Made by a program: the position numbers
In this document: piece after piece, positions 20,501-29,500 of the stretch
Layout: the number at the start of each line of letters is the position of its first letter
How positions within the stretch are numbered: the first letter of the stretch is position 1
NCBI GenBank assembly: GCA_037189525.1
Contig: JBBCJC010000011.1
Location: 1-64,000, forward strand
Source: Gemmatimonadales bacterium
Lineage (GTDB): Bacteria > Gemmatimonadota > Gemmatimonadetes > Gemmatimonadales > GWC2-71-9
Direction of reading: 5' to 3'
DNA length: 64,000 nucleotides

Positions 20501-23500
20501 CGGACGGTGCCGCCGTAGCCCGGCGGAATGCCGAGTTTCACCTCGGGCTGGCCGAACTTGGCGTTCTCGCTGGCAATCCGGATGTGACACGCCATGGCCA
20601 GTTCGCAACCGCCGCCCAGGGCAAACCCGTTGACGGCGGCAATGTACGGCTTGGCGCTGGTCTCGATGCTCCGGAAGATGCCGGAGCCCTTGGTCGAGAG
20701 CCGGCGGGCGGCCACGCCCTTGAGATTCTGAAATTCGCTGATGTCGGCTCCGGCCACGAAGGCCTTGGGGCCGGCACCGGTGAGGATGGCGGCGCGGATG
20801 TCGGAGGATTGGCGCACCAGATCCACCGCCTTGCCCAGTTCATCGATCACCTGGGCATTCAGCGCATTGAGTTTGTCGGGACGGTTGATGGTGATGAACG
20901 CGATGCCATCGCGCGGCTCGAAGAGCAGGGTCGAGAAGGTGCTCATGGGCGTCATCGTCGGGGTAAAGGGAGAGTCCAGGCAGTGTCTGTGCTATCATAG
21001 TTTAGCGGCTGCCGGGCCGATTCCCTACACCTCTGACTTTCGCTCCGAGCTGACATGTCTTCGATCCTCGCCCTCGATCAGGGCACCACCAGTTCGCGCG
21101 CCATGGTCATCCACCAGGATGGCACGGTGCTCGGTCAGGCCCAGTACGAGTTCGCGCAGCATTTTCCGGAGCCCGGTTGGGTCGAGCACGATCCGCGGGA
21201 TCTCTGGAACACCACGGTGCGGGCCGCGCGCGAAGCGATCCGCGCCGCGGGGGAGCGTCCGACCGGGATCGGGATTACCAATCAGCGGGAGACGACGGTC
21301 CTCTGGGACCGGCGGACGCTGGAACCGGTGGCGCCGGCCATCGTCTGGCAGGACCGGCGGACCAGCGCGCGCTGTGCGGAGCTGGCGGCTGCCGGTCGTG
21401 AGCCCGATCTCCGGAATCGGACGGGGCTGGTGCTCGATCCGTACTTCTCCGCCACCAAGCTGGAGTGGCTCCTTGCCCAGGGCGATTTGCGGCAGCGCGC
21501 CGAACGGGGGGAACTGGCATTCGGCACGGTGGACAGCTGGTTGATGGCCAAGCTGACGGGTGGCGCGCTGCACGCGACCGATCCGACCAACGCGAGCCGC
21601 ACACTGCTGTTCAACCTGCGGCGCCACGACTGGGACCCGGAATTGCTCGACTTGTTCGGGGTGCCGGTATCGCTGCTGCCCGAAGTCAGGCCGTCGAGCG
21701 GCGTGATGGGCGAGACCCTGTCCGAAATTTTCGGAGCGCCACTCCCGATTGCCGGTGTCGCCGGCGACCAGCAGGCCGCGCTCTTCGGGCAGGGCTGTGT
21801 CGCGCCGGGTATGGCGAAGAACACCTACGGCACCGGCGCGTTCCTGCTGCTCTATGCAGGTAGCGAAGCGCCGATTCCTCCGGCGGGGCTCCTGGCCACC
21901 GCCGCCTGCAATGCGGAAGGAGGGCTCGGCTATGCGTTGGAGGGCAGCGTCTTCATTGCGGGCGCGGTGATCCAGTGGCTCCGCGACGGTCTCGGCGTGC
22001 TGGCCACGGCGCGCGAATCTGCGGACCTGGCGTCGTCGGTGGTCGATACGGGAGGCGTCTACTTCGTGCCGGCGTTCGTGGGGCTGGGGTCGCCCTACTG
22101 GGAACCGGAGGCGCGTGGCATCATCACCGGTCTGACGCGGGCGACCGGGCGGGCTCACCTGGTGCGCGCGGCGCTCGAATCCATGGCTTACTCCACCCGC
22201 GACCTGCTGCGCACCATGCTCGAGGGGACTCGGCTCGAAATTCCGGTGCTTCGGGTCGACGGCGGGGCCGCGGCCAACCCGCGCCTGATGCAGTTCCAGG
22301 CCGATCTGCTCGATGTGCCGGTCGAGCGCCCCGACTGCGTCGAAACGACCGCGCTTGGTGCGGCGGCGTTGGCGGGAATTGCTATCGGCGTCTGGCCTTC
22401 GATCGGTGAGTTCGTCGCAAGCCGCCGTTTCGAAACCTTCCACCCGGCCGCCGACGCCGCCAGCCGCGAATGCTGGATTGCCGGGTGGGAACGGGCCGTT
22501 TCGACGGCGCTCCATTGGGCCCGCGCCTGATCCGTAGCTAGGGAGATCGGGGAATGGCCGCGCCGTGGCAGGCGGCGCACATCTCCGGGTTGCGGCGGCG
22601 GAGGCGTTCGGCGTCGAAACCGGGGCCGTGCGGGTTGAACCGGAAGCCGCGCCCGATGGCCGCGTGGCAGGCGGTGCAGTCGCGCTCGGTGTGACAGGAA
22701 ACGCACGATTCGAGCGATTGCCGGGCCGCCTGGCCATGGCCCAGGATGAACGAGGCCCTGCCGTCGTGGAAACGGGCGCTGCCGAGCGAGCGGCTGGCGC
22801 CGAGTCCGGCCTGGGCGTGGCAACTGGCGCAGAACTGCTGGGTGTTGTGGCAGTCGCTGCAACTGGTCTGCCGGGCAAACGCGGCGCTCGGGTGGCTGGT
22901 CAGGAACCCGGCCGGATGGTAGTTGCCTCCGGACGGCTGCCCCGGATCGGGCCGGTGGCAGGCAAGGCAATCCTCGCGGACGTGACAACTGCTGCAACTC
23001 CGCGGCGCGGCCGTGGCGGTGCCCGCATGGTTCTCCCGGAACTCCACGGTGTGCGAGGCTGGCGGACGCCGGTCGAGCAGGGCGCCGGCGGCCCGGCCCG
23101 GCGCCGGCTGGTGCAATGCCGTTACCGCGCGGGGAGCCGGAGCGACGTGGCAGGCGGCGCAGCTGGGCTGGGCGTGGCACGTGGCGCAGCTGGCGGGATT
23201 GCGTTGGGCCTGGCGACCGTGCGCCGTCGCGAAGTTCCGGGCCGCGTGCGACGGCGGAGCGACGAATTCCGCGCGATGAACCAGCGACCGCTCGTCCGGC
23301 CTGAGCGCCTGGATCGCGGCGACCTCGGGGGCGTTGACGTGGCAGTTGAGGCAGAAATTCTGCGCATGGCAGGTCGCGCAGCTGGCGGAAACGGTCGGCT
23401 GCCCGCCCGGGGTTCTCACCGAAGCGAGCTTGGCATGACCGCTGAGCCCGAACTCGGGGGCCTGGTGAGAGGGCGGAGCGGGAAACCCGCGGATCTGGCC

Positions 23501-26500: not shown

Positions 26501-29500
26501 GGTATGGAACGGTACGGTCTGCCAATCCGCATGGCACTGACTGCAGGTCTTGCCTGCCTCGGCCGGGGTGGTCTGGGTGTGCGGGTTGTGGCAGGTCCCG
26601 CAGGTGCCGTTGTGCGGATCGCGCGCGGGGTCGAAGTCTCCGGCGACCTGTCGCATCGCGTGACAGGAGAAACACTGCCGGCTGCCGGGCTGCATCGCGT
26701 CGGCCGCGTCCTCGCGCGTGGCCAGCCGCGGCACCTCGGCGGTGAACTGGTGGCACTGGTTGCAGTGCAGCGTGGACTGGGTGGCCATCCGGCCCAGCTT
26801 GATGTCGAGATTGGCGTGGCAGCCCGCGCTGCCGCAGGTCTCGTTGGCTGGGATGAACGCGTGCACTTCCTTCCCATGGCAGGTCACGCAGAGCACCTTT
26901 TCGAGCGCGCTCGAATCCGATTCCAGATGGACCCGATGCCCCGCGGTCTGCGCGATCCGGGTCCAGGCTTCGGACTGATCCTTGGCATGGCACGATTCGC
27001 AGCGCGCGTTAGGCACCGGCGCGTGGGGCGGGATTTCCACCGGCTTGTTGGCCACCCAGAGCACCAGCTGGCGGGTGCTGGCGTAGAGCGATTGCTGATG
27101 GCAGTCGTGACACTGCAGAGCGCTGTGCTTGCCCGCGTCGGATCCGAACTTGTTCCAGGGCCCTTCCATGATGTGGCAGCCGACGCAAAAGGCGTTGTCG
27201 TGCTGCATGAAGTTCCAACTGACCTGGCCGCCGCGGAACAGGAGCGCCAGCACCAATACGGCGCCCGTGCTCATGGCGATTTTGACCCCGCGGTCCCGGG
27301 TCGTGAGCCAGTGGCCGATGGCGCTGCGTCGTCGCCAGAGGAACAGCGCGAGCCAGATGCCGACCGTGAGGCCCACCACGATCCCAACCACCCACGCCCA
27401 GGTCGGCGCGTTGAAAATGGCGCGGAGCACGGTCATGACGCCGCCGGGGATCGGCGGAGGCTCCGCAGGAACGCCCTCGCGGAATCGGTGGAAACTGGCC
27501 GAGTCGGGAATCTGCGGAGCGAGCGCGGCCAGGCCCGGAAGGAAGAGTGCCATGGTCAGGCGCTTTCCGCGCGGATCGTGATTCGGATTACGGGGCCGTG
27601 GGTCGGGCGCCTGTCCGGACGGAACGACCGACGCCCCGCGGCCGGAAGGGACCGCGGGGTCGTGGATTGGCACCGGTTACCGGGAGGCGCCGGCGACCGT
27701 GATCTCATGCCCAGGTATCGGCGTACTCGAGCGCCGGAGGCCGTGCGCGTATTTCCCGCCCGTCGGACCGTCCAGAATGGCCTGGATCGCGGCCGACGGG
27801 GCCGGAAGCGCGTAGGTCGCCTGCACCTCGTTGATCGAAGCAATCAGCAGCGCTTCGCAGAGGAACGGGTTGTGGATGCCCTTCGAATTGTCGGCCGTCG
27901 ACTGGCCGTACTCGCCGCACATCCGGGCGTTGAACTCGGCGCCTTCGGCCGGGGTGATCTGATTGTCCGTCGTGCTCCACGCCTGCGGGTAGAGCTGCCG
28001 CACTCTGGGCAGCAAGCCGGCGTCGGTCGGGGCCGCCTGCATCGAACCGTTGCCGTCGGTGTCGGTCCAGAGCTGGTTGGTGAGCAGCCGCATCCGGGAC
28101 CGGACGGTGGTGAATGCCGCAGCCGCCACCGATGCGTTGGCGTGGCAACCCGAGGCGGTGCAGGTGGCCCAGGAACGCGCGGTCGGGGTGTAGCCGCAGT
28201 TGTCGCTGGCGGTCGGGCGACCCTGCTCGTCGAGGCAGGGGATCGGCCGCATCAGATGGCCGGTGGCCTGGAAGGCCTGGCCGCCCTGCTGGTCGGGCGC
28301 GGTGACGCGGTTCAGGTGGCATCCGGCGCAGAGCGTCGGGTTCGCCTCGGTGGCGTGCGAACTGAAAATCCGATCCTCGGCATAGATGAAGCCAGCCGGC
28401 CGATAGCCCGCGGTGCCGAGCAGGAGCGAACCCTGCGGAGCATGGGGCGACGAACTGGTGTTGGTCGGCGCGTCGTAGCGGAGGTGGCATTTCATGCAGA
28501 GGTTCTGTTCCACGTCCGCCGTGTTGATCGGGAAGCGAAGTTGGGACGGATTCTCCGAGCCGTGCGGATCGTGGCAGGTCGCGCAGACGGCGACCGGCTG
28601 ATACGCCGTGGCTTCGCCCTTCTCCATGTAGTTGTTGGTGACGCCCCAGCGGGCCAGCGCCTGCCGGCTCTCGTGACATCCGGCGCAGGACGCGTTGGCG
28701 GTGCGGGACGGGTTCACCACCGCGTGCTGGGACTGGCGCCACTCCTCGACGTAGGGATGGTGGGTGTCGCTGTGACACTCTGCGCAGGTACCGTTGCCCG
28801 TCATTCCGATGCGGGCGAGCGGGCGCACGACCTGTCCCTGGCCGATACCGCGGACGTGGTCGAGTCCGGGTCCGTGGCAGCTTTCACACTGGACATCGTG
28901 GTAAACGGCATCGCGGGTGGTGTTGAAGCCGGCCGCTTCGCTCACCATGTTGCCGCGCTCGGTGACCGCATGGCAACTGGCGCATTGATTCGGCGCGGTC
29001 GACGGCAGGTCCGCAAAGGTGGTGGCATGCGCCGTCGTCCGCCAGCGGCTCTGCACGTCGGCGTGGCAATTACCGCAGGTGGTCTGTTTGTTTTCCGCAG
29101 AGTAGTAGCCCAGGAAGCCGAGTGCGGCTGCGGGCGGTTCATTGAAGGGATCGCGATCGCGATAGACGACTTTGTCCGCTGCGCAGCCTGCGAGCAGGGC
29201 AGCGAGCGGAAGCGTCCGAAGTGCCAACGCAACGATGCGCATGGTTCGGGTTCCCGAGTGAGTACGGTGAAGCGGTTCGGACGATCGTCGCGTTCTGCTT
29301 ACCGTAGTTCTACTCTAGGAGCATCGAGCCCGCTACGCAATGGGGAAACGTTTCTATTTAATAGCAGTTGAGTCGCCTTTGTGACCATGCTGCGCGCTGC
29401 AGGAATTACGAGAGAAAAATTCAGAAATCCACTTCGTCGGATGCAGCGTATTCGTGACGCGGCAAGGCTGATCGACAGGTGCCGATCGTCGAGCGCCGCG

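Follow-up and report, generated by a model that had tools for sequence, protein, structure and literature searches.

A multiheme cytochrome and β-barrel operon of Gemmatimonadota as a candidate transenvelope electron conduit

The window, i.e., the whole 64,000-nucleotide stretch of DNA analyzed here, contains four minus-strand genes that encode a lipoprotein cytochrome, an inner-membrane-anchored cytochrome, an outer-membrane β-barrel, and a 16-heme cytochrome (Table 1). All four open reading frames reported in the first-pass annotation were recovered, with the same positions and, from the chosen ATG starts, the same lengths. Recounting of the CXXCH motifs likewise returned 8, 19, 0, and 16 (43 in total), and the reported rarity of such proteins held in a six-frame scan of the 4.65-Mb genome, where six stop-to-stop frames carry at least four of these motifs and the present genes are the top three. 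In addition, the lipoprotein and the inner-membrane cytochrome each contain a single CX4CH motif, invariant in 51/51 aligned homologues, so the four coupled genes (9-heme, 20-heme, barrel, and 16-heme) likely specify 45 heme sites (43 CXXCH plus 2 CX4CH). The neighboring ccmE, ccmF, and ccmH genes are indeed present, on the opposite strand, approximately 1.1 kb away and beyond a gene for a zinc-ribbon membrane protein; only some of the relatives have this cluster linked to the four-gene module.

Table 1. Features of the module and its surroundings (positions in the window)
Feature	Position	Strand	Basis
16-heme cytochrome, 481 aa, signal peptide	22538..23983	-	
Outer-membrane β-barrel, 497 aa, 22 strands, without plug or named family	24009..25502	-	AlphaFold2 model, profile searches
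Inner-membrane-anchored cytochrome, 684 aa, 19 CXXCH + 1 CX4CH (20 hemes)	25499..27553	-	
Lipoprotein cytochrome, 521 aa, 8 CXXCH + 1 CX4CH (9 hemes), OcwA/OmhA-related; proposed surface terminal (location inferred)	27677..29242	-	
Palindromic operator-like site, consensus CCGTAG-NN-CTACGG, overlapping putative -10 box	29300..29317	-	
Putative sigma-70-type promoter: TTGCGT, 17 bases, TAGAGT	29312..29340	-	
Divergent cytochrome c maturation cluster: zinc-ribbon membrane protein, ccmE, ccmF, ccmH, CcmI-like zinc-ribbon protein	29511..33985	+	

The barrel had been regarded as a trait of a single family, GWC2-71-9, a restriction that did not survive a profile search of a phylum-wide sample: it was found in 133/301 genomes and 8/12 families, including 87/124 genomes of the same family and 45/176 of other families. 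A gene of the 16-heme type lies directly downstream of the barrel in all 115 loci with enough sequence, and a lipoprotein gene lies upstream of it in 94/100; an iron transporter was not seen in the conserved gene set around the module. One locus (L053) is located on a contig titled Vicinamibacterales, representing either transfer or mis-binning. In the papers found, members of this phylum, described as widespread and rarely cultured (PMC11651109), are credited with Cyc2 and with single homologues of MtrCAB, CbcL, or ImcH, but not with a conduit present throughout the phylum.

As previously claimed, no Pfam or NCBIfam model matched the barrel above its cut-off. The AlphaFold2 model (73 sequences, pLDDT 85.1, pTM 0.76) contains 22 membrane strands, rather than the 24 to 26 counted before, and in addition a single hairpin in a long loop. 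Its resemblance to MtrB, ushers, and porins was confirmed, although the likeness to MtrB turned out to be generic (rank 17, amid TonB receptors and ushers): at the top, with Z scores of 19.1 to 16.4, MtrB is mixed with TonB receptors, ushers, and porins, and no family stands out. No Geobacter porin was among the fold matches, which is uninformative either way. At the sequence level, none of 73 barrel members matched an MtrB-named NCBIfam model at E ≤ 0.1, a barrel profile found nothing in the PDB (including 6r2q_B) at E ≤ 10, and NF041027, the GSU2204 family, produced a weak match (E 0.03) in 3/73. The barrel matched 497 representatives, without taxonomy (150 of the 497 listed); the nearest annotated Atlas clusters were polysaccharide-export and generic barrels (0.91 to 0.92), and neither the cluster look-ups nor a search with a divergent clade returned a name from outside Gemmatimonadota or a functional name.

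When modeled together, the barrel and the 16-heme cytochrome scored 0.72, against 0.00 for the best of three controls; the pass mark, which is a rough guide here given our own alignments, is attained by 116/157 solved complexes and 2/215 mismatched pairs. The runs share at least 79% of their contacts, with a partner pLDDT of at least 75. In the predicted arrangement, the last nine hemes (hemes 8 to 16; residues 247 to 472) sit within the barrel, where the cytochrome touches 21 of the 22 strands, and hemes 1 to 7 are periplasmic. Contact positions are better conserved than the others (0.70 versus 0.60; 0.54 versus 0.44 in the divergent clade). In alignments, two natural versions of the partner with nine hemes correspond to residues 221 to 473/478 of the 16-heme protein, i.e., to the part predicted to fill the lumen. 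The barrel-cytochrome complex MtrAB has a solved structure (6R2Q), a precedent that may explain why the model passed, although neither chain matches MtrAB by sequence; a profile of the 16-heme protein did not match MtrA (6r2q_A) at E ≤ 0.001. Of the family models, PF22113, which describes heme domains only, matched the 16-heme protein above its cut-off, and TIGR03507 reached 9.4 bits (cut-off, 209).

The 20-heme protein opens with two helices and an NrfH/NapC-like segment, carries 11 hemes up to residue 382, and continues through a Pro/Ala linker devoid of hemes into a C-terminal, c7-like domain with nine hemes, which matches c7/PpcA structures (3ov0, E 6.5e-8). Its match to NrfH (2j7a, E 6e-10) includes a membrane helix and then CXXCH-x-M, with the later hemes spaced as in NrfH, and the methionine of that motif (Met129) is retained here and in 36/51 homologues. 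Lys82 of NrfH, considered important for menaquinol binding in a preprint (bioRxiv 10.1101/2022.01.10.475773), aligns to Ser155, with a gap beside the position, and is a lysine in 7/51 homologues; the Asp89 position is a glutamine in 32/51. PF03264 did not match this protein but did match 14/51 homologues at E ≤ 0.01, and TIGR03153 gave 29 bits against a cut-off of 134. The AlphaFold2 model was poor (pLDDT 51.7), being confident only for helices 51 to 74 and 88 to 118, and Foldseek returned nothing for it at E ≤ 0.001. Three loci without the 20-heme gene contain something else in its place: a 22-heme protein with an over-cut-off NapC/NirT domain in one (L105) and multiheme-cytochrome b fusions in the other two (L117 and L119). 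Overall, the NrfH-like gene is absent near the barrel in 26/100 loci, some of which lack a substitute within the fetched stretch. By sequence, the N-terminal domain of the protein is NrfH-like, and relatives use other quinol-type modules in its stead.

For the lipoprotein, whose lipobox cysteine (C20) is invariant in 51/51, the best matches among solved structures were OmhA (6qvm, E 6.5e-18) and OcwA (6i5b, E 5.2e-15), with weaker ones including HAO and octaheme nitrite reductase; the protein belongs to the c554/MccA/OcwA/OmhA cytochrome group (PMC9250108). Hemes 1 to 7 and a C-terminal His-Asn helical segment align in order with OcwA/OmhA, and hemes 8 and 9 by order only. Using an OcwA numbering with a 29-residue offset, inferred from both His pairs, we found the first-site pair (H161 and H162) and the equivalents of H281 and H380 to be kept. 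Of the two nonbonding distal histidines of OcwA, H282 and H381 (PMC9250108), the former has an equivalent here and in 27/51 homologues, and at the position of the latter 51/51 have Ala, Gly, or Ser. TIGR03508 (decaheme MtrA/DmsE type) matched the lipoprotein only, at 59 bits (cut-off, 192); TIGR03507 (OmcA/MtrC type) did not match it and was weakly matched by 2/51 homologues. We infer that the lipoprotein is surface exposed.

The porin-cytochrome reading put forward earlier is thus supported by the complex model, the natural 9-heme truncations, the constant adjacency of the barrel and 16-heme genes, and the identifiable relatives of the end components. We lean toward reading the operon as an outward respiratory conduit for electrons over the whole envelope. 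In this scheme, the NrfH-like domain would oxidize menaquinol, and the electrons would cross the periplasm via the remaining hemes and the tethered 9-heme domain, reaching the 16-heme protein at its N-terminal hemes; as the linker lacks hemes, this step would require docking or a swinging arm. Hemes 8 to 16 of that protein, as modeled and with comparative support, would then thread the 22-strand barrel with the C-terminal end outward. At the surface, the OcwA-like lipoprotein might take over the electrons and pass them to oxides of Fe(III) or Mn, to humic quinones, or to an electrode or partner cell. Counted against a conduit are the substitutions at the Lys82 and Asp89 positions, the missing PF03264 match here and in most homologues, the loci without an NrfH-like gene, and the loss of the H381 equivalent in 51/51.

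As for direction, the genome contains the futalosine genes for menaquinone, which is the probable quinone, together with NrfHA, NosZ, and three heme-copper oxidases (one aa3-type, one cbb3-type, and one other), and we found neither Rubisco, the sole fixation route looked for, nor NiFe hydrogenase; this combination favors outward flow, as does the role described for OcwA, that of a terminal reductase acting on iron oxides (PMC7096707). On the other hand, OcwA is described in the same source as reducing nitrite and hydroxylamine too, and cultured Gaopeijia strains, whether operon carriers or not, are described as showing no anaerobic growth with or without nitrate (PMC11651109). The aa3- and cbb3-type oxidases, moreover, would serve inward flow equally. 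The same conduit might be used inward, possibly reversibly, with electrons from Fe(II), reduced humics, or neighboring cells entering through the barrel and reaching the oxidases, NosZ, or NrfA, which would give a heterotroph additional energy. We consider this improbable, although NapC/NirT proteins are also known from Fe(II) oxidizers (ImoA preprint) and porin-cytochrome complexes have been described in oxidizers and reducers alike (PMC13264449). Against it stand the lack of a detectable Rubisco, the nearest solved relatives of the lipoprotein, which are reductases of iron reducers, and the probable use of menaquinone. The low potential of this quinone makes electron uptake from Fe(II) unfavorable.

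Upstream of the module, a conserved palindrome lies over the putative promoter. A standard promoter scan found nothing there at its threshold, and a TTG..TA...T box begins 24 to 26 bases before the palindrome core in 8/20 relatives examined. Elsewhere in this genome, the palindrome lies ahead of hemH and of two genes that are each accompanied by a TonB receptor, namely hmuY and a CbiX-like gene; in relatives, it precedes hemA and TonB receptors, and the search for hemH orthologues in which to compare it gave 0/40. Genome-wide counts do not exceed those of a reversed-pattern control, which leaves its placement ahead of particular genes as the sole evidence. It was not found at nrfHA, nosZ, or cbb3, and coregulation with anaerobic respiration is therefore not supported. 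A scan with FNR-, CRP-, and Rex-like consensus motifs yielded sites in 8, 8, and 3 of 50 upstream regions, against shuffle maxima of 6, 8, and 2, with none in the window, and these motifs were set aside. Since hemA, hemB, hemC, and hemE were not found in the genome, the organism may scavenge its heme. We propose that expression of the module is linked to heme supply via a putative regulator acting at the operator-like site. These same observations could point to nutrient capture, surface reduction releasing iron or heme for the coregulated TonB receptors, which strikes us as unlikely: 45 hemes per complex would be costly under iron or heme shortage, shared control could equally match heme supply to heme demand, no iron transporter was seen in the conserved gene set, and HmuY orthologues were found in only 4/60 family genomes, versus 87/124 for the barrel.

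Slightly less likely again is that the lipoprotein is itself a catalytic reductase of nitrite, hydroxylamine, or polysulfide at the outer membrane, merely fed by the wire. Its cytochrome group, the weaker HAO and octaheme nitrite reductase matches, the retained H161-H162 pair, and the tandem lipoprotein copies in some loci are compatible with this, but it contains no CXXCK motif and has lost the second distal-site histidine, the genome has a separate NrfHA, and small soluble substrates would need no transmembrane wire. Finally, the barrel might be a channel or secretion pore with no tie to the cytochromes next to it, which would store or shuttle electrons in the periplasm without conduction across the membrane. 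This fits its best fold matches and nearest Atlas clusters but is very hard to reconcile with the unbroken adjacency to the 16-heme gene, the lumen-filling complex model, and the minimal nine-heme partners that match the lumen part.

Going beyond the outward conduit itself, we tentatively suggest, as a possibility that falls somewhat short of being probable, a third structural family of porin-cytochrome complexes, set apart by a 22-strand barrel and a nine-heme lumen wire, that provides the means for extracellular respiration to more than 4 in 10 of the sampled Gemmatimonadota genomes. It would combine interchangeable quinone-pool modules with control by a heme regulon not described before and, for several genera, with scavenged heme. 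If the module works as we read it, electron exchange with minerals, humic matter, or other cells would be open to a large group of heterotrophs from soil, sediment, and sludge; marker sets built on Mtr homology would miss the module. It would also offer structure work a new barrel-wire pair and cultivation a lead in its predicted heme dependence: heme or protoporphyrin combined with an external acceptor.

Among known systems, MtrCAB of Shewanella (6R2Q) with CymA, as well as MtoAB/PioAB, resembles the module as predicted: as described in PMC7096707, there is a multiheme wire within an outer-membrane barrel, a lipoprotein cytochrome at the surface, and a link to quinol of the NapC/NirT type. 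In contrast to MtrCAB, the barrel (497 aa and 22 strands, versus 649 residues in the MtrB chain) and the lumen cytochrome (16 hemes, versus the decaheme MtrA) do not match their counterparts by sequence, the surface protein is OcwA-like rather than MtrC-like, and the quinol module, encoded within the operon, continues into a further 16 hemes, whereas Shewanella uses soluble shuttles. The OmbB-OmaB-OmcB/Ext complexes of Geobacter, which work with ImcH and CbcL, likewise have porin, periplasmic, and lipoprotein cytochrome genes in one operon; compared by description, with the heme numbers familiar for these complexes, they differ in heme content and gene order. The CbcL-like multiheme-cytochrome b fusions beside the barrel in relatives' loci add a further parallel (CbcL layout, PMC6295460). 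OcwA of Thermincola (6I5B) and OmhA of Carboxydothermus (6QVM) have nine hemes, like our lipoprotein, which differs in being a diderm lipoprotein tied to a barrel and in having CX4CH as its ninth motif. PCC3 and PCC4, described by He et al. in 2017 for Proteobacteria and Planctomycetes (PMC5566968), are likewise predicted to run on their own all the way from the quinone pool to the surface, and they too have large cytochromes next to a porin; the present module lacks their five-helix inner-membrane protein, consists of four contiguous genes with no more than two hydrophobic helices each, and has other heme counts (the medians given in that paper are 34 and 21 for PCC3 and 4, 5, and 10 for PCC4). 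Our best reading, in summary, is that the module works like MtrCAB with CymA, yet is not a member of that group.

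The four-gene system is real and conserved. Gene positions, on the minus strand, stood as claimed in the first-pass annotation, as did the CXXCH counts of 8, 19, 0 and 16 (lipoprotein, 20-heme protein, barrel and 16-heme protein) and the tally of six frames with at least four CXXCH in the genome, three of them in the operon; the other three encode NrfH-like, NrfA-like and, by our own reading, ActA-like proteins. Under the start assignment used, the 20-heme gene ends in a stop that overlaps the start of the barrel gene; the remaining two junctions, of 25 and 123 bases, are both closed by longer alternative starts. 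The operon cytochromes contain two extra CX4CH motifs, invariant in 51/51 homologues, and since at one more heme position the copy in the genome analyzed (G000) reads CXXCH where the alignment consensus is CX4CH, such motifs can be counted as heme sites, giving a predicted operon total of 45. Two double-zinc-ribbon membrane proteins are encoded on either side of ccmE-F-H (window 29511-30368 and 33500-33985); in relatives the former gene commonly runs divergently from the operon, and it may specify a maturation factor. Four ORFs of 254-421 aa (window 34034-37071 and 17644-18672) had no Pfam match at E<=0.05.

The barrel indeed has no named family (none over cut-off), and its profile found no match in the PDB at E<=10. 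The earlier figure of 24-26 strands has to be lowered, as the AlphaFold2 model (73 sequences; pLDDT 85.1) contains 22 membrane strands and no plug. Its fold matches in Foldseek and VIA-align were generic large barrels, with MtrB at rank 7 and rank 17 (Z 16.4, rmsd 4.6, 350 aligned), respectively; the three closest Atlas clusters were unnamed and, where the phylum was known, mostly from Gemmatimonadota. Modeled together, the barrel (27-497) and the 16-heme protein (26-481) scored 0.72 (best control, 0.00), passing a mark reached by 116/157 solved complexes and 2/215 mismatched pairs, which is only approximate with our own alignments. Contact agreement between runs was at least 79%, and partner pLDDT was at least 75. 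This pass may mirror the solved MtrAB arrangement, though neither chain matches MtrAB by sequence. Confident contacts in the model joined residues 247-472 of the 16-heme protein (hemes 8-16) to 21 of the 22 barrel strands, while the long barrel loops 190-207, 305-315 and 343-348 touched its residues 378-465. Loop alternation suggests that these loops are extracellular, so the C-terminal end of the 16-heme protein would point outward. Independently of the model, barrel partners with 9, 12, 14, 16 or 18 hemes invariably retain the C-terminal end; two natural 9-heme partners align to residues 221-473/478 of the 16-heme protein, in which conservation is highest over the last 80 residues.

At the inner-membrane end, the structure model of the 20-heme protein contains two confident helices, and the segment following them had NrfH as its top PDB match (profile E 6e-10; pairwise E 0.0002 with a homologue). 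The protein carries 11 hemes, then ~100 heme-free residues and finally nine c7-like hemes. In the alignment, Met49 of NrfH is retained, Lys82 is replaced by Ser155, with Lys variants in some relatives, and Asp89 is mostly Gln (residue roles as given in the accessible portions of bioRxiv 10.1101/2022.01.10.475773 and PMC4683180); quinol oxidation is for this reason likely, not assured. Among 26 loci lacking the NrfH-like gene, a few neighbours were examined: in one set (L105) the product has 22 hemes and scores over the PF03264 cut-off (E 2e-10), in two loci (L119 and L117) a protein with 19 or 13 hemes carries a fused cytochrome b (PF01292), the layout of CbcL in the available part of PMC6295460, and some loci show only tandem lipoproteins or a lone 9-heme domain. 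That c7-like domain is a separate gene between the lipoprotein and barrel genes in L051, L076, L091, L102 and L104; the L104 frame shows no hydrophobic leader. At L022:3-3071, no stop separates the 20-heme and barrel genes, which are in frame, with the barrel ATG and leader retained.

At the outer end, the top PDB matches of the lipoprotein profile were OmhA and OcwA, the surface cytochromes of Carboxydothermus and Thermincola, and hemes 1-7 and the C-terminal segment of OcwA align with the lipoprotein in order. Of the OcwA histidine pairs defined in the accessible portion of PMC9250108, the first is present in 45/51 and 27/51 homologues and the second in 51/51 and 0/51. Judged by these alignments, the lipoprotein is a relative of OcwA and OmhA, not a strict member, with a putative outward-facing position.

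Nearly all barrel loci from named genomes were titled Gemmatimonadota (79/80), the exception being Vicinamibacterales. The barrel profile matched 133/301 sampled phylum genomes (kin are not independent, and genomes are incomplete), and with 87/124 in family GWC2-71-9 and 45/176 elsewhere, the proposed restriction to that family was not borne out. Forty profile-positive loci, picked for divergence and long contigs, were added to the comparison; over the resulting 120 loci, in which a genome may occasionally be represented twice, the barrel was followed by a 16-heme-family gene in 115/115 with at least 600 bases downstream, and the lipoprotein and NrfH-like genes lay upstream in 94/100 and 74/100. 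The contig titled Vicinamibacterales (L053) has genes for the barrel, the 20-heme protein and a 14-heme protein, with 44-51% identity, as well as an inverted 9-heme-domain copy, and the lipoprotein is absent from it; either transfer or mis-binning would account for it. Four genomes have two barrel modules with differing inner partners (L102/L103 in G157, L104/L105 in G188, L091/L092 in G299 and L106/L107 in G300). At L055:14958-19735, L064:6941-11814 and L067:15892-19208, further genes for very large cytochromes (16-32 CXXCH) lie behind ccmE, on the downstream side of the module at a distance of a few kb.

The operator-like palindrome CCGTAG-NN-CTACGG occurred with at most two mismatches in 20 of the 50 regions upstream of the operon, compared with a mean of 0.73 and a maximum of 3 in shuffled sequences. 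As the pattern was derived from these same regions, it was tried elsewhere through a matrix of 19 sites with the window site left out. Scores of at least 10 were found in 12/39 further lipoprotein-gene upstream regions (one a training-site repeat), 7/29 hemA regions (one first found by pattern) and 3/5 hmuY regions, that of G000 included, and in 0/30 glpK and 0/29 within-gene controls. Relatives also have the palindrome upstream of TonB receptors and another multiheme gene, with several pattern matches inside coding sequence; genome-wide counts showed no excess over control. Irr represses heme consumers and activates uptake, and a regulator working in this mode would fit the sites, as would joint induction. 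Separate from the palindrome, an AT-rich stretch at G000:C1 ~461380-461410, upstream of the CbiX-like and TonB genes, resembles a Fur box.

Leading palindrome sites in the genome analyzed (G000)
Position	Adjacent gene	Rank in G000
G000:C3:579465	upstream of ferrochelatase	1
window 29300..29317 (-)	four-gene operon	2
G000:C3:557119	upstream of hmuY with TonB receptor	among next three
G000:C1:461338	upstream of CbiX-like gene with TonB receptor	among next three
G000:C5:1030871	at unnamed 415-aa lipoprotein or DinB gene	among next three

Searches of G000 did not find hemA, hemB, hemC or hemE (controls positive in 10-11/14 genomes), and despite this gap it carries ferrochelatase and heme-uptake genes, which makes it a predicted porphyrin auxotroph. 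A hem cluster left unassembled is a possible explanation, against which two more genomes of the genus show the same gap. Across the family, hemA was present in 80/124 genomes (one, G179, unpublished), and all 12 listed hemA-negative genomes shared with the barrel search, scored for hemA alone, have the barrel. At E<=1e-40, the G000 ferrochelatase matched nothing in 40 other genomes of the family.

As for direction, G000 (98.1% complete) has two futalosine-pathway genes, NosZ, NrfHA and three heme-copper oxidases (by our reading A-type, cbb3-type and a third); Rubisco, NiFe hydrogenase and bd oxidase were looked for in it and not found. With these menaquinone, oxidase, NosZ and NrfHA genes present and the three others not found, the gene set would suit a heterotroph able to use several terminal acceptors, and it favors electron export, with uptake less probable. 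The gene at G000:C1:744041-745678, adjoining that of a canonical NrfH, encodes an NrfA-like protein that has five CXXCH motifs and lacks CXXCK. Close operon relatives occurred in four metagenome runs of four studies (activated sludge, sludge, unlabeled and microbial fuel cell; 29-30/30 bins covered), matches that indicate presence only.

The most likely function of the system is that of a porin-cytochrome conduit. The module is not described in the literature searched, whose coverage included few subscription papers, and the accessible text of PMC13264449 names no Gemmatimonadota complex; the available part of PMC8805035 reports MtrCAB, the Shewanella conduit, in one Gemmatimonas. The barrel and its lumen wire belong to no named family; the conduit design itself is already known.
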